From NCBI GenBank assembly GCA_964610335.1, contig CAZSVP010000003.1, positions 77,531-141,530 of the forward strand: a stretch of 64,000 nucleotides of DNA, written 5' to 3'. The stretch comes from an uncultured Candidatus Saccharibacteria bacterium (lineage in GTDB: Bacteria; Patescibacteriota; Saccharimonadia; CAILAD01; BJGX01). Under the pieces are notes generated by a model that made no database searches, was not told the DNA's origin, and was given only the letters and a program-made list of their open reading frames with translations. This document shows positions 6,267-54,941 of the stretch, one piece after another (within the stretch, counting starts at the first letter, position 1; every line of letters begins with the position of its first letter). Both the position numbers and the translations under genes were made by a program.

Positions 6267-6339
6267 ATAGGCTTTTACCGAGTGTAAACCGACCAAAGAG
6301 TTCAATATACAATTAAGCGCTTTGGTTGGGCCGGCGCCC

Positions 6340-6708
6340 TCACACAGTGGTGAGAGCGCTGGCGGAAGCGGATGGTGTGGGGGAACGGCGACGAAGCCTG
6401 GGAACGGCTTTGATCATCTCGATCTCTGCTGTTGGATCGAGCTTGTTCAGCTCGAGCTCATACCAGCCTCGCTGACGTTCGCCAGCGACTGCTGAGCTTC
6501 GGGTACGAAGGCGCAACTGCACTGTGTGTTCGTCTCCCAAGTAGCAGTTCATGACCTTGATAACCTCGAAATGGCTCAACGCCCACAAGTAGGCTGAGGG
6601 CAGCATTTCGATCCCCCAAGCGGTCAACTGACGGCCTTCGATAGCTACCATGTCGCCGCTGCGCAACTCGCCCACCGCAGTGGGACGAAGAAACGACTTT
6701 TTGTACAA
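6340..6708 (-). CDS. Hypothetical protein (GC-elevated), TTG start with AGGAGG RBS
   Basis: RC shows 'TAGGAGGATAAG-TTG'; no recognisable domain. Confidence 0.45.
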   Translation of the reverse strand: MYKKSFLRPTAVGELRSGDMVAIEGRQLTAWGIEMLPSAYLWALSHFEVIKVMNCYLGDEHTVQLRLRTRSSAVAGERQRGWYELELNKLDPTAEIEMIKAVPRLRRRSPTPSASASALTTV

Positions 6709-6888
6709 CTTATCCTCCTAGAAGCTCTTCGGGTGAATACAAAGTTATCAAACTTCCAGTGCTTTTGCAAGCACCCTGAGATCTTCTTAATATTTGCCTT
6801 GTGAACAGACGACCCGTCCCGGAGTTAACCAGAACGGGTGAGACTGTTCGCAAGCTAGTCAGACAAGCTGACTAGGTTTGCGAGGTGA

Positions 6889-7485
6889 TTACCACCAACG
6901 GTGTGAAATCCAGAAGGCGTAAGCACCAGCCCATGAGCCGTAACGACGGACAGCGTAACTGGTAAAGTACGCATCCTCACAGGCATAGTCAAGCGTAGGA
7001 CATACGGCCAAAAGCTTCGATCCGGGACAAGCTTGACCAAGTCCGAGACAACCTGCACTATTGGCACGGGTTGGGTTGTTACCCGACTCGTGTTGGTAAA
7101 TGTACAACTTATACTCAGCGTCACTACCAGTCAATGCCGGAGCGGGCGATGTACTGACACGGGCTTGCGCCTGGGCAGTAGCAGCCTGCTTGGCAGCAGT
7201 AGCGGCTTCGGCAGCCTTTTGGGCAGCTTCAGCATCAGCTTGCGCCTTGGCAGCCTGAGTGGCTCGTAGCTTGGTTAAAACTTCTTGGTCGAAGCTACCG
7301 CGCTTAGAGACAACATCAAGGGCGCTGTCGGCCTGCATGTTTATTTTGATGTCATAGTTTGATTGTGTGGCACCAGCTGCTTCAGCGGGCTGGGCAGTTA
7401 GTTTGGCGAGTTGGGGAGCCACAGGAGCGATCGCCTGGTTCACTAAGGCTATTACAGCCACAAGTGTCATATAGAGGTTACGCAT
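6889..7485 (-). CDS. Secreted transglycosylase-like protein (IsaA/SceD/Rpf-like 'ESGGN...SG..G..Q' fold) with an Ala-rich linker
   Basis: Signal peptide 'MRNLYMTLVAVIALVNQAIA'; C-terminal 'YIYQHESGNNPTRANSAGCLGLGQA' matches the (I)xxRESGGNxxAxNxSGAxGxxQ pattern. Confidence 0.5.
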   Translation of the reverse strand: MRNLYMTLVAVIALVNQAIAPVAPQLAKLTAQPAEAAGATQSNYDIKINMQADSALDVVSKRGSFDQEVLTKLRATQAAKAQADAEAAQKAAEAATAAKQAATAQAQARVSTSPAPALTGSDAEYKLYIYQHESGNNPTRANSAGCLGLGQACPGSKLLAVCPTLDYACEDAYFTSYAVRRYGSWAGAYAFWISHRWW

Positions 7486-7832
7486 GGAATGTGTTTTATA
7501 ATTCCGCCCGAACCTTTGTACTAGTTAAAGTTCTTTAGAAGAAGTAGCTCGACCTGAGCCGTACTTCTTGTGTTAATCGCTCTTACTAAATAAGGACCAT
7601 TACTTAGTAACGGTCCGAATTCGAAGAACGACGCATACTATACCAAACATAAGCGTATTTGTCAATAGTAATTATGCAAAAAATGCTATTCTACAGATGG
7701 TATCAGGTATACCTGTATTGCTTGACGAGGCTATGATAATGTCAAATTCTTACTAATACTTATGCTCGCATTACTGTTATCAGATATGGTATAGTTGGCG
7801 CCAGATCGTTGACAAGCCCTAGGGGGGGGACA

Positions 7833-8174
7833 ATGAGTGATCAAAACTGCTTGCCTGGGTGGGTGACCGAGCGGCGTCTTGAATCGCTGCAGGGACTGCG
7901 ACTCTGGTACACCATGCAAATGCTGGTGACAATTCCACTGTTGCTGGCAACCACGGCAATCCTGGTACGGATAGGTCAGACCAGTGACACCATGTTCTTG
8001 GTGGTGTTGTTGGCCAGTTCCATCTGGTTTGCGTACTGTCAACATCGGTTGTGGCTGTTCCGACCACTTGGGCCGGCAGCTCGTGAGTACAACAGGTGGC
8101 AGTGCTATTGCATCAAGAATCAATGCTACCTCACGCCAGATCAATGGCGCGAGAGCAGGAGGAGTTATGTCTGA
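7833..8174 (+). CDS. Small membrane protein (2 TM), N-terminus 'MSDQ...'
   Basis: GGGGGG RBS; translationally coupled to the next gene through ATGTCTGA. Confidence 0.5.
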   Translation: MSDQNCLPGWVTERRLESLQGLRLWYTMQMLVTIPLLLATTAILVRIGQTSDTMFLVVLLASSIWFAYCQHRLWLFRPLGPAAREYNRWQCYCIKNQCYLTPDQWRESRRSYV

Positions 8175-8454
8175 TTGGCGTACTGGAGAGTGGCTGTGGG
8201 CCGCCCTGGGACTCATCTGTTTGCTATCTGGAGTGGCGCTCTACATCTGGGAGTTTAGCCGCGGTTGGACTCCGATTCGAATCATTCGCGAGTATCGCTA
8301 CGAGTGGCGTTGCTCCAAGACTGAAGGACGAGCTCGTCACACCAGTTACGAATGGGGAGCGAGGCTGGGCCTGGCCAACGTTCTCTGGTTCGTTGCAGCA
8401 ATTGCAGTCTTCAACATTCTGCGGTGGGACATCGCGATTCCACCCTGGCAATAA
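8167..8454 (+). CDS. Small membrane protein (2 TM), N-terminus 'MSDW...'
   Basis: ATG overlaps the upstream TGA; hydrophobic helices. Confidence 0.5.
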   Translation: MSDWRTGEWLWAALGLICLLSGVALYIWEFSRGWTPIRIIREYRYEWRCSKTEGRARHTSYEWGARLGLANVLWFVAAIAVFNILRWDIAIPPWQ

Positions 8455-8462
8455 GGAGCGAC

Positions 8463-8723
8463 ATGACAGATCAGATGAGTTTTACCCAGGTGAGAGATGA
8501 GTTGCTCAATGTGGTAGCACAGGCCAGTGATCTGGTGGAGAAGCAGCTGGAAGCCGGTCGACTGAGTGGCGACACAGCCGAAGCGATCCGAGGAGAGCTC
8601 CAGGTGATTCGCAATCGCCTTAGCTGGGTTCAACCGAGCGACAACGAGCAGCTTGATCGGCTCAGCATGTCAGTGCTGATCGCCACCATTCACGCTTGCT
8701 TCCCGGGCGTCTTCGACGACTGA
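8463..8723 (+). CDS. Small cytoplasmic hypothetical protein (86 aa)
   Basis: AGGAG RBS 6 nt upstream; same operon as the two preceding genes. Confidence 0.5.
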   Translation: MTDQMSFTQVRDELLNVVAQASDLVEKQLEAGRLSGDTAEAIRGELQVIRNRLSWVQPSDNEQLDRLSMSVLIATIHACFPGVFDD

Positions 8724-10779: not shown

Positions 10780-11136
10780 TCAAGTGGGATCCCGAGCGGG
10801 GTTGGGTAGGGAGTCGGTGTTGGACTCGTTTGGCTTTGTCAGGTCAATAACTCGACCGATAGTATCGCTTAGCTTTCTCAGATCGATGATCTGGGGAAGC
10901 CGCCAGACGGGCTTGAGATCGCGAGTAGCCACGTCGTAGATGACCAGTCCGTGCTTGTGCAAGATCTCAAGTGCCTCAGCTCCTCGTTCTACCGCTAGGG
11001 CGATGTCGGTGGGGTTGGTGAACAGGCTGCCTTTCTCGGTAGCCAGCGACCACAACTCTTGGTAGAGTTCCAGTACGCTGTCGCGCAATTCCTCTGCAAT
11101 GTTCTGCGGATCAATGGGGAATGGATGTTCTGTCAT
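10780..11136 (-). CDS. Hypothetical protein (GC-elevated)
   Basis: Start refined to the ATG giving 'MTEHPFPID...' with a GGGAGAG RBS. Confidence 0.45.
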   Translation of the reverse strand: MTEHPFPIDPQNIAEELRDSVLELYQELWSLATEKGSLFTNPTDIALAVERGAEALEILHKHGLVIYDVATRDLKPVWRLPQIIDLRKLSDTIGRVIDLTKPNESNTDSLPNPARDPT

Positions 11137-11283
11137 GGCTCTGCTCTCCCTATGTCTAGAACCATGCCGCTTGCACTTAGTATTGTGCGCTTGTGTTCTC
11201 AGCATTACAAGTGAATTTATGTATAACTTCGAAACCCCCTCGGGGAGGGAGCTCCGAAGGGGCTTTGGTGATGGGCGTAGGCC

Positions 11284-11883
11284 CTAGTGAATTGCTGCTT
11301 GGAGGCGTGTTAGACCATAGGCAAGGCTCAAGCGCTTTGGGCTGAATGGCACCCAGAGTCGAACATCTACGGCCTCGGCTGATCCAAAGGCCGGTACGGC
11401 TACGATTGCGAAGACCATTGGAGCATGATTGAGAGCCATAATTGGTGCCAATTCATGCCAGGTTTGTTTGGCATAGATCTGGTTGTAGCTGGCATGAAGC
11501 ACCGGTGGCTTGAGAGCACTAATTCGAGCCAAGGATGCTTCTGCTTCCTCAAACGGTTGCTTGCTGCAGTCCATCACTCTCAATTGCGCTGTGTCTGGGT
11601 TGCTGGGATCGACGTACAACCCAATTGCTCGTACTACATCGAGTGCCTGCTCGCCACTATCTTGTAGTACTGCGCCATCGAGCGTGACATCGTGCTCGGC
11701 ATCCACAAATCCAACTCCGTGATGCACCGCATAGAACAGAATCGCTGCTTCGGTCTGAGCCTCGTCGATGAAATAGTGCTGCTCGGGTTGGCAGCGAAGC
11801 ACCTTTATCTCGTTGGTCACCGGCTTTGTTGGTCGAGCTGCTGGCAGGGTTGGAGCCGTCTGCTTTCTTCTGGATCGCGCCAC
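11284..11883 (-). CDS. Hypothetical protein (GC-elevated)
   Basis: 199-aa ORF with no recognisable motif. Confidence 0.45.
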   Translation of the reverse strand: MARSRRKQTAPTLPAARPTKPVTNEIKVLRCQPEQHYFIDEAQTEAAILFYAVHHGVGFVDAEHDVTLDGAVLQDSGEQALDVVRAIGLYVDPSNPDTAQLRVMDCSKQPFEEAEASLARISALKPPVLHASYNQIYAKQTWHELAPIMALNHAPMVFAIVAVPAFGSAEAVDVRLWVPFSPKRLSLAYGLTRLQAAIH

Positions 11884-12021
11884 GATTACCTCCCAATGTA
11901 TTGGATCGTGAGTCTGTCAAGGACTGTGAGCTGTTATAGCATAGTCGGATCTGATGACGCAATGGGTTGGCAAATAATGGTAGAATATTGGTACAAGATT
12001 TAGTAGCCAATGGAGGGCAGT

Positions 12022-16060: not shown

Positions 16061-16640
16061 CTTGTGCTTGCCAGTGCACACTGTTTGTACTAGTATATCT
16101 TCCAGCAATCACGGGCCTTCGGGCCTGTGCTCGTCCTAGGAAGTGATTTGTGGTCTGCAAACCACGATAATCCTTTCTGGGGCCGCGATACGCAACTCGC
16201 GGCGTGAGTCGGGCTAGTCACCTGATTCGACTTCGACCTACGCGACGGTCGGTGTGAGTCCAGCCTTCACAAAGCTCCAAAAGGGCAAGCTGGCGTAAGG
16301 ACATGATGCTGTCCGGTGGGCTACGTTAAACCCCACGGGGGTTGCTCCCTACTGCTTTTCCCGCTTTTGCAGTAAAAAGAACACAAAGTGGTAGCTATTT
16401 GGCATTTTCTTGCTATGAAACGAAAAGCCGTAGTGGGTGGAATAGGTCTGTGACAAGACCGAAAAACCCCGGGAGTACGTGAACTCCAAGTTCGTAATTC
16501 GATTGCAGTGTGACTGCGAGTGAGAACGCATCGGTTCGTATTAGTGGGCGGTCAAGCTCCGGCCCCGTCTCGGTACGAATACTCATTCAAAAGACACTAA
16601 GCAGTTGAAATACGCGCGAGCCTTCACTTGGTTTCGATCA
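16061..16640. ncRNA. GC-rich structured non-coding locus with tmRNA-like signatures (candidate ssrA; architecture unresolved)
   Basis: + strand 16157-16207 encodes 'ANHDNPFWGRDTQLAA' followed by TGA (a tag-like frame that begins with a GCA resume-type codon and ends in LAA); 16211-16232 'GGGCUAG-UCACCUG-AUUCGAC' matches the tmRNA 5' acceptor/D-analog spacing; several UUCG/GNRA hairpins; no convincing protein ORF; no canonical T-arm/CCA end found. Confidence 0.35.
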
Positions 16641-16761
16641 GGTGTCGAAAGCCGGTTCGGGTCCTTCGGGATCCGGCCGGCGCTTTCGTTATAATCATAT
16701 TTTTGCTACAATCCAAGCCACCATTGGGCTTGATGCGGGCGGAACCACAACCGAGGTACCA

Positions 16762-17091
16762 ATGGAGCTTTACAATTTTCCCAAGCGTGGTGAACTGCGT
16801 ACCAAACTCAAGCAAGTTTGGCCAGCTCGTGAGTACGATGGCTTGATCGAACGAGTCGCCAGGCTGGCTGAAAAGCCAGTCACGCCAGATGGCCTGTTGG
16901 CTGCTCTCAGCTTGGCCATCGAAGACTTCGTGGCTGACACTGATCGCAGCGCTGATTTTCGTGCCGCGGCCTATGCCAATCTGCCAGCGGTGATTCGTGT
17001 GTTGCTGACCGATTCCCAGATGCGCAATCTGGCTCTCAACGAGTATGTCAGCATGCATCAGCGGCTGTTGCAGATCGAAACAAGCCAATAA
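16762..17091 (+). CDS. Hypothetical small protein (uncertain; could be part of the structured non-coding locus)
   Basis: ATG ORF 'MELYNFPKRGELRTKLKQVWPAREYDG...'; a competing antisense ORF is present. Confidence 0.3.
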   Translation: MELYNFPKRGELRTKLKQVWPAREYDGLIERVARLAEKPVTPDGLLAALSLAIEDFVADTDRSADFRAAAYANLPAVIRVLLTDSQMRNLALNEYVSMHQRLLQIETSQ

Positions 17092-17170
17092 CTTACCGGC
17101 CAACCAGGCTGTTCCCTGGTTGAAAGTACCTTGGCAGCTAGTGTCGGTCTAGTTGCCACAAAACGGGCAA

Positions 17171-34368: not shown

Positions 34369-35955
34369 ATGGCAGATTCATCTGAAACAGGACAACCACA
34401 AACACCTGATAAAGCGTCTACCTATGAGGATATTTTAGGTAAGATTCAACGCGGTGAATCATCTGGTGATGATTTGGCTGCGGCTATTCTAAGTGATTTA
34501 AGTGGTGAGTCCAATATGGATGAGCCTAACAATCCATATGTCGATGAGTTGATTGGTGTGCTAGAAGGTCAAACTGGCGATAACCCACTTCGAGATACTT
34601 TGCTGGATGTACTTCAAAAACTAGCTCAGGGCGGTGAAAAAAACCCATTAAAACCAACAGCCAAGGAGTCAGCTGCTAAAGCAGCAGCCGAGTTAGCAGA
34701 CGAGGACCATGGTAAGAAGTTAATACCAACCTTGGGTGAGATAAGGGCTGACTTTGAAGAGCAGACCGGTTTGCGATTACCGCCTGGCGAAAGGCCGTTG
34801 GACCAAAAACTCGAAGAAGCACGACTTGAAGTAGCACTTATGAGATCAAAACGCGAGGGGCGTCATGTGCTACTGCGCGGGAGTGAGGCTCGAGTAGCCA
34901 AGGCAGAACGCGCATATTGGTTGGTATCGAATGCTCGTGTACAGTGGATATTAACGGAGCGACTAATGGCCGAAGGTGTAGCAGATCAGGATGGTAACAT
35001 AGACGCAGCTAAGGCCTCAGAAATACTTAATTCAGCTGAGTTTCAGACTCAACTGATCCAAGCACAATTAGATGAAGAAGTTAAACTATCGCAGTCAATT
35101 CTAGATGTTCGCACTGGCAAAGCTGGCGGTAATATTGTTAGCCGCTGGGGGCGACGCATGGCTGAACGCTATGCCAAACATCCTAAGGCTAGATCTGGCA
35201 TTGCAGCTGGATTGCTTGGCGTGGGTGCTACAGCTGTTGCCACTGGTGGTGTTTCGTTAGTTGCGGCTGGTGCACTCTATGCTGGGCAGCGAATGCTGCG
35301 TAAGGTGGTAGGCGAACAATATGAATCGAAGGTAAAAGCCCCCAAGTTGGCCAAGAAAACTGAGCAAAAACGATCTGAGTTCCTAACTGGCGACAAAGCG
35401 CGGGCTTTTGGAGATGTGTTATTTAAGGCTTTTACAAAAAAGCTTGATAGTGAGCAAAAGAAAGCCGCCAGGTCTAAACCAGGTAGTATGGCAGAGTTAG
35501 CAAACCAAGTTACCCTTAGGGGCGCTGATCTACCAGAGCTCAAGATACTATTAGCATCTACGTATGAGATGATCAAGAACATTCATGAAAGCGATCCTGG
35601 TAACGAACAAATCCCCGAAAACTTGCCTCAAGCAGAACGGCGTCGGATTGAACTAATCCAAAGGCTGCGAGATACAGGTGTGACCTCCTTAGAAGAGGCT
35701 TTTAGTCAGTTAAGACCCGAGATGATAGCTGATGTTCTGACACTTTCGCTTGATCGTCGGTTGACAGAGACCCGCACACTAGCTCAACAAAGAGCACCTT
35801 GGTTTGCCAAAGGGTCAGATTGGCTAAGGCGTAGTACACGGGCTACCACTGCACGAGTTTGGCGCTCGTTGACTACACTTGATAACGAGGGTGAGGTTGA
35901 AGAGGAATCAGGCTTACCTGGAGGTTTGCCAGCTACACCTCCACCTACTATATAA
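34369..35955 (+). CDS. Hypothetical protein (acidic N-terminal region, central TM, basic/coiled C-region)
   Basis: 528-aa ORF with no recognisable motif. Confidence 0.5.
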   Translation: MADSSETGQPQTPDKASTYEDILGKIQRGESSGDDLAAAILSDLSGESNMDEPNNPYVDELIGVLEGQTGDNPLRDTLLDVLQKLAQGGEKNPLKPTAKESAAKAAAELADEDHGKKLIPTLGEIRADFEEQTGLRLPPGERPLDQKLEEARLEVALMRSKREGRHVLLRGSEARVAKAERAYWLVSNARVQWILTERLMAEGVADQDGNIDAAKASEILNSAEFQTQLIQAQLDEEVKLSQSILDVRTGKAGGNIVSRWGRRMAERYAKHPKARSGIAAGLLGVGATAVATGGVSLVAAGALYAGQRMLRKVVGEQYESKVKAPKLAKKTEQKRSEFLTGDKARAFGDVLFKAFTKKLDSEQKKAARSKPGSMAELANQVTLRGADLPELKILLASTYEMIKNIHESDPGNEQIPENLPQAERRRIELIQRLRDTGVTSLEEAFSQLRPEMIADVLTLSLDRRLTETRTLAQQRAPWFAKGSDWLRRSTRATTARVWRSLTTLDNEGEVEEESGLPGGLPATPPPTI

Positions 35956-35978
35956 CTAACAAAACATAGGAGTTTACC

Positions 35979-36323
35979 ATGAATGACACCCAGATAATCA
36001 TATTAAAAGAACTAGGTATAACTGATGCTAGTCCTGAGAAGCAAGCCGATATACTAGTCAAGATGGCTGAAGTTATTCAAAACCGCGTGGCAGTTAGGCT
36101 TACTGATATACTTACTGATCAGGAGCTGCAGCGCCTGGATGAACTGTCAGACAAAGACCCCGCTGAAATGTTTGCTTGGCTACAGCAAAATGTGCCTACC
36201 TATAATCTACTAGTTCAGGAAGAGACTATTCGGCTTCGCAACGAGCTAAGTCGAGGTTCTGTTGATATTAAGCAAGCTATATCTGAATATATTGATTCAA
36301 AGGCGCAAGCTCAGAGTACTTGA
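35979..36323 (+). CDS. Hypothetical small protein
   Basis: RBS 'ataggag'; 114 aa. Confidence 0.5.
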   Translation: MNDTQIIILKELGITDASPEKQADILVKMAEVIQNRVAVRLTDILTDQELQRLDELSDKDPAEMFAWLQQNVPTYNLLVQEETIRLRNELSRGSVDIKQAISEYIDSKAQAQST

Positions 36324-36348
36324 CAAAATAGTAATTATGTAGTATACT
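36320..36348 (+). promoter_or_regulatory. Strong sigma70-like promoter TTGACA-N17-TATACT reading into the GC-rich island
   Basis: TTGACA at 36320-36325 overlaps the stop of the upstream gene; TATACT at 36343-36348. Confidence 0.5.
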
Positions 36349-36580
36349 GGCCGCGATGATTTGCTATAGAGTAAATCAGTCCTTTTAAAACCGTTTCTGT
36401 AGCAATATGTTCTGGAGGGTCGCTTTTTGTGATACCTCTTTTTTGTTTGGTATTTGCCGATCTAAGGCAGAACCCTGCGTGCTATTGTGTCATCTGCCGC
36501 CCAGTTGATGCATGGCCGCAGGACTCTGCCTTAGTAAATCGTCTGCTCCCGCTCGGGAGCCAAAACCCGAGGAGGGAGCA

Positions 36581-37819
36581 ATGTCCATATTCGGTAATCG
36601 CGATGTGCCAGTGCCTGAAGTTGATGGCATTGGTATGCCTCTAGGTGACAGCAACCGTCACGCCCCACCACGGGACGAGGACGAGCTTGCGGCTCATCTG
36701 GCAGCAGCATTGCGAGCCAAGCAGACCAGCCGACCGTCAGCCCCGCCCGGGGATCCAAAGAACCCCGAGGAGGGAGACATGACGAACCTGGGAGAGATGC
36801 TCGACGACAAGAGTCGAGCCGCCCTCGATCAAGCACGTGCCAGTGCCGAGGCAGCCGTGGACTTCTCGCTCAGCTATGAAGAGTGGGTGCCATGGCTGAA
36901 CGAGCACGGCATTCCGGTACCGAGTTCGGGAGACCCCAACCCGGACGAAGACTGGAAGCAGGTCCGAGCCTTGGTGGGACTCTTCCCGAGCGCGACGCGC
37001 AAGGCGAAGGCTCACTACCGCGAAGTACAGGCTAGTATCGAGAAGCTTCACAGCTACCTTGAGCAGGCCTGGTTGTCAGCCTGCGAACTCTTGGCGCAAG
37101 CCGGAGCGCAGTACGCCAACACCCAACCACCAGAACCAACCAACCCGACAGCCCCTCCGGGGGGCACACCAACCCCTGAGGAGGGCGTCATGAAGACCAG
37201 CGAGCAGATCAAAGTCGAGGCAGCCGAGCTGATGAAGGACTGGGCCAAACCCGAGCTGACCAGCGGTCTCTACCGCTGGGATGCCACGGTCTGGGACACC
37301 AGCCGGATCGGCGATGGCAAGATCGGCTACATTGGCCTCCTCTCGGGGAAGCTGATGTTCAGCCAGATCACGTACCTCGAGGAGTGCGTCGAGCGCGGAC
37401 GGGACCATCCCTTCGACAGCAACGACGTGCTCGACCAGCTCCACGTGCTGGTCCGCGAGTGGCTGAGCCTCGACCCGGCCTTCGTGGCCTTGGACGAGGC
37501 AGATGCCAAGCGCGAGGTGAGTCGGGCGGTCTATCGCGTGTTGCGCGGTGAGATCGCCTTCGACCAGGTGGCTTACGTGCCACCGCTCACCCCTGAGGAC
37601 CGGGCGGCAGCTCTGGCGGCGTCCATCCAGGCCGCAACCAAGCCCGAGGCCAAGAAGGTCAAGGGTCGTCGGCGCGGACGCGACAAGGGTGACAAGCCCA
37701 AGTCCGCCTCGGCGTTGCCCTCACCTCCGGTCACCCCTGTGGTGGTCGGCAGCCCGACCCTCGGTCGGTACGGCATCGCCGCCGCCACCGCCCTCGGTGA
37801 GGTCTGGCAGTCGCGCTAG
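36581..37819 (+). CDS. Island gene A: Pro/Ala-rich hypothetical protein (~412 aa) with a basic C-terminus
   Basis: Very high GC; GGAGGGAG SD 5 nt upstream of the ATG at 36581; two further in-frame SD+ATG units inside. Confidence 0.6.
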   Translation: MSIFGNRDVPVPEVDGIGMPLGDSNRHAPPRDEDELAAHLAAALRAKQTSRPSAPPGDPKNPEEGDMTNLGEMLDDKSRAALDQARASAEAAVDFSLSYEEWVPWLNEHGIPVPSSGDPNPDEDWKQVRALVGLFPSATRKAKAHYREVQASIEKLHSYLEQAWLSACELLAQAGAQYANTQPPEPTNPTAPPGGTPTPEEGVMKTSEQIKVEAAELMKDWAKPELTSGLYRWDATVWDTSRIGDGKIGYIGLLSGKLMFSQITYLEECVERGRDHPFDSNDVLDQLHVLVREWLSLDPAFVALDEADAKREVSRAVYRVLRGEIAFDQVAYVPPLTPEDRAAALAASIQAATKPEAKKVKGRRRGRDKGDKPKSASALPSPPVTPVVVGSPTLGRYGIAAATALGEVWQSR

Positions 37820-37867
37820 TTCGTGGCTGTCAGTGGTTGGTCTCGTTTGCTACAGGAGCGCGAGAGT

Positions 37868-37895
37868 GGTGTGGGGGTCTTCGGACCCCCACACC
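37868..37895 (+). terminator. Perfect 12-bp GC hairpin with a UUCG loop after gene A (no U-tract)
   Basis: 'ggtgtgggggtc-ttcg-gacccccacacc'. Confidence 0.45.
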
Positions 37896-37988
37896 TCAAC
37901 CACACTACTAGGATTAGTATTCCGATTGTGTCGAGTAGACAATTCAACATGCTTGAGACAGTCGGAAACCTGCTCCTGTAGCAACTTC

Positions 37989-38021
37989 AAACCCGTACCT
38001 CGGTGCAAACCGGGGGAATAC
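37989..38021 (+). repeat. Copy 1 of a 33-nt conserved leader element 'aaacccgtacctcggtgcaaaccgggggaatac' (plus upstream 'gctcctgta') preceding gene B
   Basis: Identical to 38519-38551. Confidence 0.8.
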
Positions 38022-38034
38022 CAAGGAGGCCCAC

Positions 38035-38361
38035 ATGGGACTCGCAGATGACCTGGCCGCACGCAAAGCAGCGAAGCAGGCTCCGCCGCCGCCCGCCAAG
38101 ACCACCATCGATGAGGTGGACAAGGCGATCGATGTGGCGCTCGCGCCCATCGTCGACGACTTCACCAAGGTCGTCACGGAGGCCCTCGCGCTCTTCGACA
38201 AGGAGACCGCGAGCGATGACTTCCTGGAGCGACTTCTGGTCGCGTTGGGAGACACCGATCTGCCCACCGGTGACGGCGTGCTCGAGGCCAAGGTGGCCGC
38301 TGCGGTCAACCGCGGCGTCGCCAACGCCATCGCCGCCGTGGTCGCCAACGCGACCAAGTGA
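38035..38361 (+). CDS. Island gene B: small acidic helical protein (108 aa)
   Basis: AGGAGG RBS; ATG at 38035. Confidence 0.6.
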   Translation: MGLADDLAARKAAKQAPPPPAKTTIDEVDKAIDVALAPIVDDFTKVVTEALALFDKETASDDFLERLLVALGDTDLPTGDGVLEAKVAAAVNRGVANAIAAVVANATK

Positions 38362-38373
38362 GCAGTTGCTCGG

Positions 38374-38404
38374 CCACCGGCGTACTCTCGTAGTACGTCG
38401 GTGG
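38374..38404 (+). terminator. 13-bp stem hairpin (one G.U) with a CUCG loop after gene B
   Basis: 'ccaccggcgtact-ctcg-agtacgtcggtgg'. Confidence 0.4.
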
Positions 38405-38518
38405 CATGAGCCACCACACATTCACATTAGATGTATAGAATCGTCTTGCTGATATTTATCTTCATGGCAATGGAGCATTACTTCGGTAGTGATCAGCAAC
38501 CGCGCTCCTGTACAAACC

Positions 38519-38551
38519 AAACCCGTACCTCGGTGCAAACCGGGGGAATAC
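38519..38551 (+). repeat. Copy 2 of the 33-nt leader element preceding gene C
   Basis: Identical to 37989-38021. Confidence 0.8.
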
Positions 38552-38566
38552 TAGTTGGAGACTGTT

Positions 38567-39067
38567 ATGGCAGCACCAATGGCCGCGGCCGCAGCTCAAG
38601 GGTTGTTGGCTGCATTTGGCGGCGCTAACCCGCCGCCGCCCGGGGGCAATCCACCCGGCGGTGGAATGCAACCACGAAATGCTGGCATCGTCGCTGGCAT
38701 CGTCGCTTCGGTACTCGCGATCCTGACCTACATCGGGTTGGGACTGTGGGACGCTGTCGGCTGGGGCAAGGGTCTGATCGGTTTCGTGCTCGTTGGTGTT
38801 CTCGCCTTCGGGGTCACGTTTCTCATCTGCATCCGTCCACCTCAGCCGCGACAGCCCGCCGCTCCGGCACCAGCACCAGCGGCCACCAACCACACCTTCA
38901 TCGCCATCATGGTGGGGTGTGGTACGACGATCGTTGCTTCGATCGTTGCGGTGGTGGCTGTCAGCCGGTTCAGCGATGACGGTGCCTTCAGGATGTTGGC
39001 CTTCCTGGCCCCATACCTGATAGCCGGAGTCATCGCCACTCGGGCACTGTTCAAGCGCGGCAGCTAG
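38567..39067 (+). CDS. Island gene C: 4-TM membrane protein with a Pro/Gly-rich N-terminus
   Basis: ATG at 38567 (the ORF-track start was TTG); four hydrophobic helices. Confidence 0.55.
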   Translation: MAAPMAAAAAQGLLAAFGGANPPPPGGNPPGGGMQPRNAGIVAGIVASVLAILTYIGLGLWDAVGWGKGLIGFVLVGVLAFGVTFLICIRPPQPRQPAAPAPAPAATNHTFIAIMVGCGTTIVASIVAVVAVSRFSDDGAFRMLAFLAPYLIAGVIATRALFKRGS

Positions 39068-39100
39068 GCCGACCATGAAGGGGAACCTCCATGGTCGGCC
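39067..39100 (+). terminator. 11-bp perfect hairpin after gene C
   Basis: 'ggccgaccatg-aaggggaacctc-catggtcggcc'. Confidence 0.4.
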
Positions 39101-39298
39101 GCGAGGCCCTGGGCTGAGTTTCTCGATTTGCGTCGAGAGACCACCCAGGTGCCCTCGCACCTCAACCTACATATTAGGCTTATGCTTTATAAGAGACCGT
39201 AACAAGTGTAATCTTAATATGTGGGCTGAATCTTGGAGAGAAAACCAAGCTTAAGCACACAACCGCACCCATACATCAACCATAGAGGAGGTGGTCCT

Positions 39299-40726
39299 AT
39301 GACACGTAGTCACAGGATCTTCGCCGCCTGTGCGATTGTCTTCACCATGCTCATTGCATTGGTGGGGGCGGTTGCCATCGGCACATCGAGTGGTCAGACC
39401 GCCTCAAGCGGCAGCACGACCACGACATCACTCGAGCCAGTCCCTGGCTCGGTCACCACCACGCCAGCGCCAACCGACAACGTGCCGGCGGCCACGCCCG
39501 AGGAGCGCAAACCCACGGTCACGGCTGAGCAGTGTCACGATCGGATCGGTGCCTCGGAAGAGAAGGACCGCGAGCTCCAGGAGCAAGGCATCACCGCCGA
39601 ACAGTGTGGTCTGCTGCTGGTGGAGCTCTGTCAGAAGGTCGACTTCGATGGCGTTCGCGCCCTCGGAGAGTCCGACCCATCAGGCAAGTGCGCCGCCGTG
39701 ATGGCCGGTGTGAGTACGACGCAGAACACCGCGCCGACCAGCACCGCGCCTGGAGCAACAGCTCCATCTGGCACAACGCCGGGCTCAACGGCACCGCCAA
39801 CCACGGCTACCCCAACGCCTCGTCAACCCGATGTGGTGGATCTCATGATCTATCTGCAGAAGGTCAGCATGGCCGAAGGGCACGTCCAAGGAGTCGGTGT
39901 CACCTGTGAGGCCAATTGCGTTCTGCGCGACGGTATCACGGCTGATACCCCCGAGGGCATGTTCGCCCAGCTCATGAGCAAGGGTCTCGTCTCGCCAGTC
40001 TTTCTCGATGATGCAGCCCGCACCATCGCGTTCCAGACCGGGCAGGAGTACACCGACACTCGAGAGGTGGGCGACGCCGCCAAGGCCGGCAGTGACACAC
40101 TGATCGTGCTGAACTGGATCAAGGACCCGAGCACCCCAACCATGTTGGAGCGCGGGATCTTGCCAGCCGGCACGACGCTGTACAACACCGTCGTACAAGA
40201 CGGCAAGGTGGTGCAGTTCAGCTACACCACCAACCGGGATCGGGTCTACCTCAAGATCTGGAAGGGCGACACCTTCCTGATGTGGTTCGACAGCTGCGGG
40301 AACAGGACGAGCGATCGTCCGACGCCTGGAGTGCCCGAGACCCCAACGCCGCCACCGCACGACGACGAGCCACCGACCACGACGACACCACCACCGACCG
40401 GTGGGCCGACCCCGACCACGACACCACCAGCGTGTCCGCCAGGCACGATCTGGAACCCGGTCACGAAGAAGTGTGGGAAGTTGGATACCCATCCAGTGGG
40501 ACCCAACAGCCCTGTTCCTACCCAGGTGCAGGGCCCAGGGCCAACCCATCCGGCAGGGCCACCCAACACGGCGATCGAGCATCCGAACCCCACGACTGGT
40601 TGCAATCCAACCTGTCCGGGGGCAACGACGCCCACCACAAGGGCGGTGACACCCACGGTGCCGCCGATCGTCACCAGCACCACGTACCAGCCGCCTCCGA
40701 CGCCCACCACCATGGGCGGGCCGTAG
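39299..40726 (+). CDS. Island gene D: secreted or anchored Thr/Pro-rich protein (signal-anchor 'MTRSHRIFAACAIVFTMLIALVGAVAIG', PT-rich C-terminus)
   Basis: GGAGGTGG RBS; ATG at 39299. Confidence 0.6.
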   Translation: MTRSHRIFAACAIVFTMLIALVGAVAIGTSSGQTASSGSTTTTSLEPVPGSVTTTPAPTDNVPAATPEERKPTVTAEQCHDRIGASEEKDRELQEQGITAEQCGLLLVELCQKVDFDGVRALGESDPSGKCAAVMAGVSTTQNTAPTSTAPGATAPSGTTPGSTAPPTTATPTPRQPDVVDLMIYLQKVSMAEGHVQGVGVTCEANCVLRDGITADTPEGMFAQLMSKGLVSPVFLDDAARTIAFQTGQEYTDTREVGDAAKAGSDTLIVLNWIKDPSTPTMLERGILPAGTTLYNTVVQDGKVVQFSYTTNRDRVYLKIWKGDTFLMWFDSCGNRTSDRPTPGVPETPTPPPHDDEPPTTTTPPPTGGPTPTTTPPACPPGTIWNPVTKKCGKLDTHPVGPNSPVPTQVQGPGPTHPAGPPNTAIEHPNPTTGCNPTCPGATTPTTRAVTPTVPPIVTSTTYQPPPTPTTMGGP

Positions 40727-40811
40727 TCGGCACTGACAACTCTGGCCTCGAGTGAGGACCGTCGCCAGAGTGAGAAGTCCCAGTCCTCCATGATGTATGG
40801 GTGCAATTGCT

Positions 40812-40839
40812 GCCCTGGGGAGCCAAAACTCCCCAGGGC
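40812..40839 (+). terminator. 11-bp GC hairpin with a CCAAAA loop after gene D, near the island's right boundary
   Basis: 'gccctggggag-ccaaaa-ctccccagggc'. Confidence 0.4.
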
Positions 40840-40890
40840 TAGCACCCACACCCTAAGCTGAAGACAGTGCAGCTACTAGCTACCTTGTCT

Positions 40891-40908
40891 TCAGGATAGG
40901 TATCCTGA
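40891..40908. promoter_or_regulatory. Palindrome 'tcaggata-gg-tatcctga' (8-bp arms), a putative regulator binding site
   Basis: Located 21 bp upstream of the -35 box of the LPXTG-gene promoter. Confidence 0.35.
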
Positions 40909-40928
40909 AAAGAAAACCATAACAAATA

Positions 40929-40957
40929 TTGACACCAATACTAAATTATGATATTAT
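40929..40957 (+). promoter_or_regulatory. Near-consensus promoter TTGACA-N17-TATTAT for the LPXTG gene
   Basis: Motifs at 40929-40934 and 40952-40957. Confidence 0.55.
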
Positions 40958-41055
40958 AACCGCTAATTGAGAGGCGGAGCTCATTTACAGCCAAATACGA
41001 TGCATTTACTAATTGAGACTTGTCAAACATTAAACCTGACAAGGAAGGAAACTAT

Positions 41056-42351
41056 ATGAAAAAGAAATCAACTTTTCGTAAAGTTCTCGGCATTGTATTG
41101 GCAACAGTAGCTTTAGTGGTAATGCCACTGGCTGCAGCTGCTGATTGGAGCCCTGAACGACCGATCAAAGAATATTATCCAGGAGTACCTGGTTTTGATC
41201 ATGTGACATTTAACTCGTTTGTTAAAACCGCCAATTATGGCGACGAACGACTTTTCTATACTGCCAAGGATGCGGCTAATACCAATTCTGGCGGTTTCGA
41301 TGACAGCATGCAGGTGCATGCTGGTCAAGAGATACTTATGCGCACCTATATACATAACGGTGCCGACTCAAGTCTCAATGCAGGTGGCACGGGCATAGCT
41401 CGTAACACCAAGGTAAAGGTAATGCTGCCAAGTGGCTATGACAAAGCCTTGCGCTCTGTTAGCTACATAAGTGCTAGCAATGCACAGCCAGGTACTGTAG
41501 CGGCTTCTGTTGATCTAAAGGGTGACAACCCATTTGGTCTGCAGTATGTTGCAGGATCTGCTATGGCTTATAGTAACCAAGCTCCCAATGGCTTCAAACT
41601 CAACGATAGTATCGTGGGTGATGGCGCCTTGGTCGGTAATGTTGCTCCAGATGGTAATGTACCAGGCTGCTTCGAGTATGGTGTGGTTGTAACCATGAAA
41701 GTGAAAGTTACAGCTGCCAACTTGAGCATTCAAAAGCAAGTTGGTATCCCAGGCTCTGGTCAATGGAAAGAACAAGTACAAGTCGGCAAAGGTGATACTG
41801 TAAGCTGGGGAATCCACTACGAAAACACCGGTGACCGCGTCATGCACAAAGAAGTAGTAACTGACAAACTACCCCCTTACCACGAAGTGGTACCAGGTAG
41901 TGTCAAGCTCTACGTGCCCAATGCTCCAGAAGGCGCTCAACTCAATGACACTTCGTTGTTTAACGAAGGTGTAATGGTTGGTGACTACGCTCCAGGAGCT
42001 GGTGGTAACATACGTTACCAAACTCGGGTCAAACAAGATGTACCTGCAAACTTGCTAATGCGTAATGTGGCTTGTATCGGATCAGATGAGACTCAGACTG
42101 ACATCTGTGATGATGCTACTACTATTACCCCTCCAACACCTCCACCTACACCGGAGTGTTTGCCAGGCATACCAGTAGGTGATAGCCGCTGTAACCCTGT
42201 AACGCCTCCCCCTACAGGTGGTCCGTTGCCAGCAACTGGTGTGGAAAGTGGCTTGGCTGCAAGTCTAGGCATGACTGCCCTTACAACCGGTGGTTATATG
42301 CTACGACGTAGCCGTAAGGACCTCAAAAAGGCCCTCACCAAAGTAAAATAA
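41056..42351 (+). CDS. LPXTG-anchored cell-surface protein (sortase substrate)
   Basis: Signal peptide 'MKKKSTFRKVLGIVLATVALVVMPLAAAADW'; C-terminal 'LPATG' plus hydrophobic stretch plus 'RRSRKD' sorting signal. Confidence 0.8.
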   Translation: MKKKSTFRKVLGIVLATVALVVMPLAAAADWSPERPIKEYYPGVPGFDHVTFNSFVKTANYGDERLFYTAKDAANTNSGGFDDSMQVHAGQEILMRTYIHNGADSSLNAGGTGIARNTKVKVMLPSGYDKALRSVSYISASNAQPGTVAASVDLKGDNPFGLQYVAGSAMAYSNQAPNGFKLNDSIVGDGALVGNVAPDGNVPGCFEYGVVVTMKVKVTAANLSIQKQVGIPGSGQWKEQVQVGKGDTVSWGIHYENTGDRVMHKEVVTDKLPPYHEVVPGSVKLYVPNAPEGAQLNDTSLFNEGVMVGDYAPGAGGNIRYQTRVKQDVPANLLMRNVACIGSDETQTDICDDATTITPPTPPPTPECLPGIPVGDSRCNPVTPPPTGGPLPATGVESGLAASLGMTALTTGGYMLRRSRKDLKKALTKVK

Positions 42352-43554: not shown

Positions 43555-44469
43555 CTATAGTTTGAGGTGACGTGAGATTGCGAGCCAACTCGATATTGCA
43601 CCGATAGCGATACCGCCAGCATAAATACAGGCTATTACTAGTAGTATGTGACCATTGAAGTAGTTGAGCGTGGCAGCCGCATTGAGACGCTCAATCAAAA
43701 ACGAGCTAACAGCGCGTTCAAGAGGGATCAAGGCAATAATTGCAATGGTGGCGCCAAATGCACCATAGAGAGAACCTTCTACTATGAATGGACCACGAAT
43801 AAACCATTTGGTGGCACCTACCAGCTTCATGATGTCGATTTCTTCACGACGCGTAAATATTGCCATACGGATGGTATTGAAGATTATTAGAAGTGCAATT
43901 ATCAAAAAGACCACACTTAGTATCAAGCCGATGCGAGCAACACTGTTGCTGATACGAATAATGTTTTCGACTACACCCTGACGGTTTTCATCACGATTAT
44001 CAAAGCTTGTTTCGGATATGATTACAGCACCCGAGACACCTTTTATACTACTATTGGTTTCGCTAATCTTATCAAGATTCTTTAGCTTAACTTCAAAGCT
44101 AGCTGGTAGCGGGTTGCCAATCTCTTGGGCGGATTGGGCAAGTTTCTTACCCTCGCTGCTGGATTGTTCTAGCCGCTTGAGCGCATCGGCCTTGGAAATA
44201 TATTCCACGCTAGCAACATTGTCTAGACTCGTAATATTAGCCTGCAAGGCTTTGATCTCTTCACCCTTGGCTTCATCACTCAAGAAAATACTTAAGTCAA
44301 TCTTGTCTTTAACATCGGCCAGCTGAGCCCGTACAAACATAGTCGAAAAAGCAAAAAAAGTCATTACTAGTAAAGTAACCACCATAATGGCTGTAGCTGC
44401 AGTACTTAGCCAGGCATTGCGAAAAGTATTACGAAAACCACTCTTAAATATGCGCCAGAAGGTGATCAC
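43555..44469 (-). CDS. ftsX: Cell-division ABC transporter permease FtsX
   Basis: 4-TM with a large periplasmic loop; adjacent to ftsE. Confidence 0.8.
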   Translation of the reverse strand: MITFWRIFKSGFRNTFRNAWLSTAATAIMVVTLLVMTFFAFSTMFVRAQLADVKDKIDLSIFLSDEAKGEEIKALQANITSLDNVASVEYISKADALKRLEQSSSEGKKLAQSAQEIGNPLPASFEVKLKNLDKISETNSSIKGVSGAVIISETSFDNRDENRQGVVENIIRISNSVARIGLILSVVFLIIALLIIFNTIRMAIFTRREEIDIMKLVGATKWFIRGPFIVEGSLYGAFGATIAIIALIPLERAVSSFLIERLNAAATLNYFNGHILLVIACIYAGGIAIGAISSWLAISRHLKL

Positions 44470-44563
44470 TGCAAACCTCCGGTTTGCAAGGCTGAAGCAA
44501 AAAGACCCAAGGCTAAAGTGTTTAACCCTGCCTTCTGCCTTCTTCCCTTAAACCTTACTTCCT

Positions 44564-45244
44564 TCATAGTGAGTACTTTCCGATCTTTTCATCTTTGACT
44601 ATTCGACCGCGGTTGAGTGTGATCACACGTTTTTTAAGGGCATCGACAATGTCCTTATTGTGGGTAGTGAGCACTACTGTAGTACCAAAACGATTGATCT
44701 TGAGCAGTAGCTCAATAATATCCCAAGAGTTTTTGGGGTCTAGGTTGCCAGTCGGCTCGTCAGCGATCAGTATTTTTGGGTTACGGATCAAAGCTCTAGC
44801 GATCGCCGTACGTTGTTTTTCGCCACCAGATATTTCGCCTGGGTAGTGATGAGATTTTTCACTTAAGCCAACTAGTTGTAGTATCTTGGGAACCGCGCGT
44901 TTAATCTCACGTGTGCGAACGCCGGATACCTCAAGTGCAAAAGCGACATTTTCATAGACAGTGAGATTGGGTAGTAGTTTGAAATCCTGGAATACCACAC
45001 CGATTCTTCGGCGCAAGTAAGGAATGTTAGCCTTGTCGATGGTGTCGTAGTCAACTGATCCGACAATAATCTTTCCAGAAGTTGGCATTTCTTCTTTTAT
45101 CAAGAGACGGATCAAGGTACTTTTGCCAGCTCCGGAGCTACCAACCACAGTTACGAACTCCTTTGGGTTGATATGCAAAGACACGCCACTTAAGGCGACG
45201 GTTTTGTTTGGGTAAATTACCGACACTCGATCTAGTAAAATCAT
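44564..45244 (-). CDS. ftsE: Cell-division ABC transporter ATPase FtsE
   Basis: 'GSSGAGKSTL', 'ISGGEKQR' and 'ILIADEPTGNLD' motifs. Confidence 0.85.
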   Translation of the reverse strand: MILLDRVSVIYPNKTVALSGVSLHINPKEFVTVVGSSGAGKSTLIRLLIKEEMPTSGKIIVGSVDYDTIDKANIPYLRRRIGVVFQDFKLLPNLTVYENVAFALEVSGVRTREIKRAVPKILQLVGLSEKSHHYPGEISGGEKQRTAIARALIRNPKILIADEPTGNLDPKNSWDIIELLLKINRFGTTVVLTTHNKDIVDALKKRVITLNRGRIVKDEKIGKYSL

Positions 45245-54852: not shown

Positions 54853-54941
54853 TGGTGCCAGAGGTGGGAGTCGAACCCACACGAGCGATAAAGCTCACAC
54901 GATTTTGAGTCGTGCGTGTCTGCCAATTCCACCACTCTGGC
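54853..54941 (-). tRNA. tRNA-Leu (anticodon CAA), class II with a long variable arm and encoded CCA
   Basis: Minus strand: acceptor GCCAGAG/CUCUGGC, anticodon loop CUCAAAA, variable stem GAGC/GCUC, T-arm GUGGG-UUCGACU-CCCAC, 3' ACCA. Confidence 0.9.

Follow-up and report, generated by a model that had tools for sequence, protein, structure and literature searches.

The stretch of DNA considered here (the window) comprises 64,000 nucleotides (64 kb) of contig CAZSVP010000003.1 from an uncultured Candidatus Saccharibacteria bacterium. Between 36.46 and 40.85 kb the window carries an island with a GC (guanine plus cytosine) content of approximately 62%, whereas the rest has approximately 46%. 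The island is filled by four open reading frames (ORFs), A to D, which all lie on the plus strand and form, together with a structured leader, the operon that is the subject of this report. The features of the operon and of the next transcription unit are listed below, where GC3 is the GC content at third codon positions and z compares folding with that of shuffled sequences.

36320-36348, plus strand: operon promoter of the sigma-70 type (TTGACA-17-TATACT), agreeing with the consensus at 11 of 12 positions
36414-36449, plus strand: hairpin resembling a terminator (GGAGGGTCG...ACCTC), then a U-run (TTTTTTGTTT); candidate attenuator
36458-36541, plus strand: long leader hairpin with the invariant apex UGCCGCCCA at 36495-36503; fold z -8.8
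36544-36580, plus strand: hairpin in which the Shine-Dalgarno sequence of A, GAGGAGGG (36569-36576), is paired with upstream sequence
36581-37819, plus strand: gene A, an ORF of 412 amino acids (aa) without a transmembrane segment; GC3 0.76
37868-37895, plus strand: hairpin after A, a perfect 12-bp GC stem with a UUCG loop and no U-tract; -27.6 kcal/mol, z -3.7
37988-38021, plus strand: copy 1 of a 34-nt exact direct repeat, directly 5' of the ribosome-binding site of B
38035-38361, plus strand: gene B, an ORF for an acidic, Ala-rich protein of 108 aa; GC3 0.84
38365-38414, plus strand: GC hairpin after B; -34.8 kcal/mol, z -6.4
38518-38551, plus strand: copy 2 of the 34-nt repeat, upstream of the ribosome-binding site of C
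38567-39067, plus strand: gene C, an ORF for a membrane protein of 166 aa with four hydrophobic segments; GC3 0.69
39067-39158, plus strand: two successive GC hairpins after C (39067-39100 and 39101-39158); -68.1 kcal/mol, z -9.9
39299-40726, plus strand: gene D, 475 aa, with an N-terminal membrane helix or signal; GC3 0.75
40798-40848, plus strand: terminal operon hairpin enclosing a perfect 11-bp stem (40812-40839); -36 kcal/mol, z -5.6
40929-40957, plus strand: promoter of the next transcription unit (TTGACA-17-TATTAT), agreeing at 11 of 12 positions
41056-42351, plus strand: LPXTG/DUF11 surface-protein gene, the next transcription unit after the operon

Composition and gene content of the island

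No other stretch of comparable GC content occurs in the 64-kb window. The four 1-kb windows covering 37001-41000 have GC contents of 0.631, 0.621, 0.606 and 0.605, and all other 1-kb windows lie within 0.404-0.537. At a resolution of 100 nt, GC content rises from 0.45 (36400-36499) to 0.54 (36450-36549) at the left edge, peaks at 0.74 (37700-37799) and falls from 0.56 (40800-40899) to 0.37 (40850-40949) at the right edge. The edges match the 5' leader, approximately 120 nt 5' of the start codon of A, and the terminal hairpin, directly 3' of which GC content is back to background. Within each of the three internal spacers, GC content drops to 0.41-0.46 in the core (37900-37999, 38400-38499 and 39150-39249). 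The GC3 values of A to D compare with 0.33-0.53 for the remaining real genes of the window. First and second codon positions are also raised, with the third being the most shifted; amino-acid composition was for that reason set aside as the driver of the rise. Codon choice within the island is actinobacterial in style (ATC 0.84, AAG 0.91, GAG 0.84, TTC 0.89, CTC plus CTG 0.75).

Most of what the original prediction, made from the sequence alone, had said about the locus is borne out. Its borders near 36460 and 40860 agree with the 100-nt windows, the high GC content and the GC3-rich, actinobacterial-style codons are confirmed by the GC windows and codon counts, and the TTGACA-N17-TATACT promoter that it placed at 36320-36348 is present. 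It had also claimed a GGAGG-type Shine-Dalgarno sequence before every gene, which holds for A (GAGGAGGG), B (AAGGAGG) and D (AGAGGAGG) and fails for C, where there is just GGAG (TTGGAGA). A long perfect GC hairpin lacking a U-tract had been described after each gene. All four hairpins fold far better than shuffled sequences and none is followed by a U-run, but two are imperfect, one containing G-U pairs and the other a bulge. Hairpins at the position after A occur also in three relatives (L013, L014 and L015; related loci and contigs are designated here by L numbers), and L015 has a similar CCCTGGGGAG...CTCCCCAGGG hairpin after gene D. These hairpins are probably transcript-end or stabilising structures. 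A scan within the island detected no further promoter-like site.

The four ORFs are real genes, because substitutions are biased towards third codon positions and the ratio of nonsynonymous to synonymous divergence (dN/dS) is low. In a comparison of D between the window and L001, 27 of 38 differences fall at codon position 3, and dN/dS is 0.12 for D, 0.18 for A (against L023) and 0.00-0.08 for six flanking genes. Non-coding RNA was considered in place of genes and rejected on the third-position bias and on conservation at the protein level. The predicted products, including a Pro/Ala-rich A, an acidic B, a C with four segments and a D with Thr/Pro linkers and Cys pairs, stand at their original lengths.

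Protein A contains 13% Ala and 9% Pro. Its helix-turn-helix-like N-terminal block (LSYEEWVPWL...GIPV...SATRKAKA) is conserved, its C-terminal half varies, and it has a PPGGTxxPEEG linker; four homologues were found. The protein is one candidate for binding the leader RNA. Its AlphaFold model (predicted local distance difference test score, pLDDT, 38) is unusable for fold comparison. The start of A differs between gene callers, giving 412 aa in some contigs and 347 aa in L001. Gene A has three in-frame copies of the pattern CCCGAGGAGGG-N4-ATG (protein motif PEEGxM), one at the annotated start (36566-36583) and two internal ones (36764-36781 and 37172-37192), and the third copy is kept in L015. 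The repeated pattern possibly marks nested internal initiation or a domain boundary. Protein B has 18 acidic and 11 basic residues. Protein C has a conserved C-terminus (LAFLAPY..G.I....F..G) and homologues in L013, L015 and L023.

Protein D contains 17% Thr, 13% Pro and several Cys pairs. A hydrophobic helix at the N-terminus (modelled at residues 3-28), linkers rich in Thr and Pro, a helical domain containing Cys (approximately residues 67-142), an alpha/beta core (approximately 175-350) and a Pro/Thr/Cys-rich tail make up the protein. The core is well conserved, with 35 invariant positions including C203, C207 and C333. Two domains of D could be modelled (pLDDT approximately 80-88), and no solved or viral fold matched them (nothing at E <= 0.001 in the BFVD fold search). 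Searches of A to D against Pfam, PHROGs, NCBIfam and PADLOC gave nothing significant, with nothing below E = 0.01 in PHROGs, and a profile search of PDB sequences gave no match. A sortase signal of the LPXTG type (C-terminal motif, hydrophobic segment and basic tail) is present in none of the four proteins.

Conservation of the locus and its leader RNA

Relatives of D are rare. There are 13 among 5.8 billion clustered proteins and 18 among 1.84 billion protein representatives in an exhaustive profile search, and a scan of genome contigs with the D profile gave one locus, L018. Relatives with a readable source name or gene context are Saccharibacterial, the names being Candidatus Saccharibacteria or Saccharimonadales, and the others carry no taxonomic label; none was traced outside Saccharibacteria, and the source names also support the earlier assignment of the window to a Saccharibacterium.

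The operon occupies the same locus in at least eight other Saccharibacteria lineages: L013 (GCA_016191105.1), L014, L015, L146, L147, L021, L018 and L145. The recurring order is hpf, secA, FKBP, murD, an unknown gene and DUF5663, then A-like, small, C-like and D proteins, and then a DUF11/LPXTG-type surface protein, prfB, ftsEX, a peptidoglycan hydrolase and ctpB. The full order from SecA to FtsEX is present in L013, L014, L015, L147 and L022-L026; L146, L021, L018 and L145 are shorter or differently arranged, and the portion present agrees with the recurring order. In all related loci recovered, the cluster is at the expected place.

The lineages that share this arrangement are distant from one another. 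Their housekeeping proteins are 53-74% identical to those of the window, e.g. MurD 53%, PrfB 59% and FtsX 69% in L013 and PrfB 74% in L015, where D is approximately 40% and A 38% identical. Synonymous divergence (dS) of PrfB against L146 is 2.08, and with lineages so divergent synonymous sites are saturated. The GC3 excess of the operon is present across this distance in genomes of 46-50% GC: 0.69-0.85 against a background of 0.43-0.51 in L013, 0.73-0.79 against 0.38-0.49 in L014, 0.64-0.91 against 0.38-0.51 in L015, 0.74-0.92 against 0.41-0.44 in L146 and 0.72-0.78 against 0.38-0.45 in L147. In L021, a richer genome, the gap is smaller (0.71-0.77 against 0.57-0.61). The operon seems to have its own GC3 set-point at approximately 0.7-0.8.

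The 5' leader of approximately 230 nt is structured and aligns across lineages, as does the operon promoter, which has counterparts directly 3' of the DUF5663 gene in L013 (7154-7182) and L015 (6281-6309). The terminator-like stem at 36414-36449 is kept in the alignment and the consensus fold, and L013 and L145 have a counterpart of it (GCAGG...CCTGC plus U6); attenuation by this stem is a candidate function. The hairpin that pairs the Shine-Dalgarno sequence of A appears in both the minimum-free-energy and the centroid folds and may have a regulatory role.

The long leader hairpin has the strongest comparative record. Seven sequences, drawn from six lineages, were compared; the share of paired cells is 87.7%, whereas shuffles give 73.6 +/- 1.9 and slid controls 31-42%. 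Both sides have changed in 15 of 30 pairs, against 8.0 +/- 1.9 in shuffles, a value that none of 500 shuffles reached. A single copy per locus, in every case 5' of the operon, is detected by the covariance model (R1) in the window and in L001, L023, L015, L064, L145, L013, L021 and L018, which include the deepest relatives (L018 and L021). Copies elsewhere lie at 7305-7391 in L013, 6408-6490 in L015, 3363-3450 in L145, 56-133 in L021 and 6042-6120 in L018. Of 108 stretches obtained when metagenomes were scanned for the leader motif, one was a true leader (L064). Apart from a chance snoRNA hit, the leader matched none of the 4227 families of Rfam 15 at E <= 1. From its sequence and predicted fold, the leader is a candidate new cis-regulatory RNA that has not been described previously. 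Riboswitches, T-boxes and ribosomal-protein leaders likewise have a long 5' untranslated region that holds a terminator-like stem plus U-run, a conserved hairpin whose pairs covary and whose loop is invariant, and a Shine-Dalgarno sequence masked by pairing, whereas this leader belongs to no Rfam family and was found only before this operon. It combines the terminator-like stem and U-run with the occluding hairpin; neither an alternative pairing nor a ligand was found.

Origin and maintenance of the GC-rich codons

Substitutions were polarised using three strain clades (the window, 'X' and 'O') with mutual identities of 95-97% in the D-to-FtsE region. Third positions of D have undergone 10 GC-to-AT and 8 AT-to-GC changes, implying an equilibrium GC3 of 0.71 (observed 0.75); at the per-site rates of the flanks, approximately 58 and 13 would be expected. 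The corresponding counts for A are 37 and 23, with an implied equilibrium of 0.67. Four flanking genes show 91 GC-to-AT and 84 AT-to-GC changes and an implied equilibrium of 0.40 (observed 0.39-0.45). For A and D pooled, the counts are 47 and 31, where flank rates would make approximately 81% of changes GC-to-AT (P = 1.8e-5). The island is not ameliorating, because the equilibrium GC3 of A and D is 0.67-0.71 as against 0.40 in the flanks. It is at or close to its own compositional equilibrium, and the mild GC-to-AT excess is what AT-biased mutation against a GC-favouring force would give.

The reading that best fits these results, with a probability of about 0.7, is that of a single, ancient, vertically inherited orphan envelope operon belonging to one group of Saccharibacteria (order Saccharimonadales), with GC-rich codons that are maintained, and not of a recent import. 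The GC signal is tied to the coding sequences and actively maintained, most likely by selection, and is not the decaying scar of a transfer. Its cause is most likely selection on the transcript or on decoding, either for a structure-rich or RNase-resistant mRNA or for deliberately atypical codon use. Classical translational optimisation is unlikely, the translation genes rpsB, rpmE, tsf and frr having ordinary GC3.

According to the proposed mechanism, transcription would start at the genome-type sigma-70 promoter (36320) and the transcript would pass through the leader with its terminator-like stem and U-run, its long hairpin with the UGCCGCCCA apex and its hairpin occluding the Shine-Dalgarno sequence of A. 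Given this architecture, expression of the operon is probably conditional, and some factor could act through it by attenuation or translational gating. Protein A would be cytoplasmic, B small and acidic, C a membrane protein with four passes and D membrane-anchored and exported with long Thr/Pro linkers. The product would most likely be an assembly of the cell envelope or the host interface, situated beside a sortase-anchored surface protein. Such a role is the most plausible one for A to D since the sortase-substrate gene is adjacent, and the earlier view of the proteins as undescribed and of the envelope type is upheld.

Several observations weigh against this reading. In L018, a genome of 55% GC, the excess is nearly gone (GC3 0.61-0.71 against 0.60-0.66), so the rule may be a GC3 near 0.7 and not a GC3 above that of the genome. 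The conserved leader hairpin is missing from L014 and L147 (no match to the covariance model), where the leader is a different one. The only grounds for the envelope role are hydrophobic segments, linkers and gene neighbourhood. Translation genes have no GC3 rise (rpsB 0.41, tsf 0.47, frr 0.40; 0.40-0.47 for rpsB, tsf, frr and rpmE). The polarised test comprises a small number of changes, 78 at third positions, in recombining strains, and imports of GC-rich alleles would also look stationary. Relative to dinucleotide shuffles, coding windows of the island fold more stably (mean z -1.74) than the flanks (-0.37; P = 2.5e-4), which fits selection for structured mRNA, although these z values may overstate the effect, as GC3-rich genes lose their three-base GC periodicity on shuffling.

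A further consideration on that side is an older acquisition at the base of the clade, in which an ancestor of this Saccharimonadales group received the genes from a high-GC donor, e.g. an actinobacterial host, and passed them on vertically with the composition kept by selection. This history is possible, though doubtful. The actinobacterial style of codon usage, the Ala/Pro/Gly/Thr-rich proteins with Thr/Pro linkers and the hairpins without a U-tract all point towards such a donor, and cultivated Saccharibacteria grow on Actinobacteria as their hosts (PMC10633639). Against such a donor, all placeable members of the 18 D relatives in the 1.84 billion representatives are Saccharibacterial, and A has four homologues. 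The promoter and leader are of the type of the resident genome. An ancient acquisition would also explain the origin only, and a mechanism of maintenance would still be needed.

A local rise in GC content with no selection on the genes, brought about at a recombination hot spot by GC-biased gene conversion or some other mutational bias of the region, is improbable. The locus is indeed a mosaic among strains. When the window (34369-36323 and 38035-39067) is compared with L023 (4922-6853 and 8623-9767), core proteins are 94-99.8% identical, whereas identity is 38% for DUF5663, 45% for B, 35% for C, 92% for A and 96% for D, and for unk528 no similarity could be detected. The window and L001 differ in patches, and all three codon positions are shifted towards GC, as a regional bias could bring about. 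Such a mosaic of divergent alleles would be expected for loci under diversifying selection. Regional bias and biased conversion are disfavoured because GC3 is independent of hypervariability, spacers are near background GC and an exchanged neighbour is not GC-rich. The divergent L023 alleles of B and C have GC3 values of 0.83 and 0.71, whereas the equally hypervariable unk528/unk523 (0.36) and DUF5663 (0.35-0.41; 0.41 in L023) are normal, and D is GC-rich despite a window-to-L023 divergence at the level of the background. The LPXTG gene has a normal GC3 of 0.37-0.39 in spite of its apparent exchange, which is suggested by a comparison of the window with L146 (4297-5595): dS is 0.25 for this gene but 2.08 for prfB and 1.18 for D, so the gene may have been exchanged recently between lineages. 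A regional bias should enrich non-coding DNA most, yet the operon spacer cores have 41-46% GC, and the GC rise has its edges at the 5' leader and the terminal hairpin.

Codon usage of Patescibacteria has been proposed to be complementary to that of GC-rich hosts, with host-like codons avoided genome-wide (bioRxiv 10.64898/2026.06.21.733656). The operon concerns the same organisms and the same codon axis (an AT-leaning epibiont and a GC-rich host), but is a conserved exception written in host-like codons. This exception prompts a speculative proposal, which is judged quite improbable, that host-type (Actinomycetota-like) codons are a deliberate translational gate through which A to D would be translated efficiently only when the cell is attached to and feeding on its host. 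This would require that host tRNAs or other host decoding capacity are imported too; a 2026 preprint reports uptake of host RNA by a patescibacterium. Should the codon gate and the attenuator-type leader both be true, the operon would be a sensor/effector module for host contact. In a weaker form of the proposal, the atypical codons may throttle or pace translation of the envelope proteins.

Recent transfer from an actinobacterial host or an actinophage is very improbable. The original prediction had offered import from a high-GC actinobacterial host as one explanation and the remnant of an actinophage or plasmid as another. In favour of a recent transfer there are only the compositional contrast and the style of the hairpins and Shine-Dalgarno sequences. 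Import from the host is contradicted by the conservation of locus and GC excess across family-level divergence, by the stationary directions of substitution and by the tracing of D relatives to Saccharibacteria only. Homologous genes at one locus with a similar GC excess in relatives are, moreover, an outcome that the original prediction had itself listed as refuting its claim. Nothing in the phage, plasmid or PHROGs searches supports the remnant: A and D had no tblastn match in 50,697 phage records, and the island had no blastn match in 72,556 plasmids. The earlier statement that integrase, transposase and rRNA or tRNA target are absent agrees with Pfam, PHROGs and NCBIfam scans of the island, which found no mobility gene, and with the position of the sole tRNA of the window (54853-54941), 14 kb from the island. 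Flanking direct repeats were not found; similarity between the borders is limited to a 15-nt match with 14 identities (GGGAGCCAAAAC), shared in close strains only by the hairpin loops before A (36552-36566) and after D (40815-40829). This loop similarity was considered as a pair of att-like repeats and rejected, being at about chance level in 5 kb.

Assembly chimerism, the joining of a Saccharibacterial contig to a high-GC fragment, has the abrupt change in composition and nothing else in its favour and can be ruled out, as the original prediction had suspected, because both junctions recur in assemblies made independently of one another. At least 10 independent samples have the junction between DUF5663 and A, and many others, from various samples and assemblers, have the one between D and the LPXTG gene. 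Six separate contigs from six samples (L001 and L022-L026, including the 300-kb contig Ga0172278_1055 of the Joint Genome Institute) contain the whole island with both junctions, and the only breaks in short-k-mer Logan contigs are at the 34-nt exact repeat, at the two copies of which the SRR14932609 contigs end and start.

Comparison with known systems and other features of the window

Pathogenicity island 1 of Salmonella (SPI-1) is AT-rich, and its AT-richness is linked to silencing by H-NS. To our knowledge, no nucleoid-silencing system is known for Saccharibacteria. SPI-1 is the closest analogue of the operon, as a deviant cluster at one chromosomal site that is vertical across its clade and has retained its composition long after acquisition (PMC7232297). 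The sign is opposite, since the operon is GC-rich in a mid-GC genome, with the deviation at synonymous sites of the ORFs and the spacers near background; moreover, it encodes neither secretion machinery nor any known family. The operon does have the fixed locus across a clade and the persistent deviant composition by which an ancient, non-ameliorated core island is recognised. It shares abrupt borders, atypical codons and genes of unknown function with classical horizontally acquired genomic islands, but has no mobility genes, tRNA or repeat borders, donor homologues or amelioration, and it is found at the same locus in every relative recovered.

The vls antigenic-variation locus of Borrelia is a GC-rich, GC-skewed surface-protein locus in an AT-rich genome. 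Like the operon, it is surface-related and fast-evolving, and its high GC content persists across species despite divergence. The GC-richness of the operon, in contrast, does not track hypervariable genes, and the operon has four genes and a regulatory leader. Neither silent cassettes nor long repeats were found in 36000-41300, where the repeats are short and the longest is the 34-nt repeat in two copies.

A literature search on DUF5663 and on GC-rich islands of Saccharibacteria brought up nothing of relevance. A native orphan operon for envelope proteins that maintains a host-like composition and has a leader RNA of its own is an unusual case and apparently one not described before. It calls for caution in the detection of horizontal gene transfer, as an excess of 16 points in GC and 35 points in GC3 is here inherited and maintained in a native operon. 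During binning and decontamination of genomes of the candidate phyla radiation, such a region could be thrown out as contamination. For selection at synonymous sites, the operon offers a naturally occurring test case in a bacterium that is reduced and depends on a host, and the four orphan protein families with the new leader RNA are plausible candidates for components of the poorly understood interface between epibiont and host.

Downstream of the operon, the promoter at 40929-40957 marks the right-hand border outside the GC-rich region, serves the LPXTG/DUF11 surface-protein gene and is kept in L014 and L015. The protein encoded at 41056-42351 has an LPATG anchor (TIGR01167 score 16.7 bits, cut-off 15.9). 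The 34-nt repeat has the sequence CAAACCCGTACCTCGGTGCAAACCGGGGGAATAC, which contains a small CCUCGGU/ACCGGGG stem; copy 1 is also present in L001, and this form of the repeat is absent from distant lineages.

Elsewhere in the window, three regions (6300-8700, 10780-11900 and 16600-17100) show a moderate GC enrichment of 52-57%. Their ORFs have no Pfam match or look spurious, and no rRNA, tRNA or Rfam family was found there. Three tandem paralogous ORFs (165-785, 832-1269 and 1297-1899) share a common N-terminus (MPTK..SR...K.GFKFRWW); the first and third, which the scan covered, have no match in Pfam. Finally, ftsE-ftsX (43555-45244) lies on the minus strand in the window lineage, L022-L033 and L146 and on the plus strand in L013 (14319-15910), L014 (14526-16117) and L147, a difference that is a local inversion.

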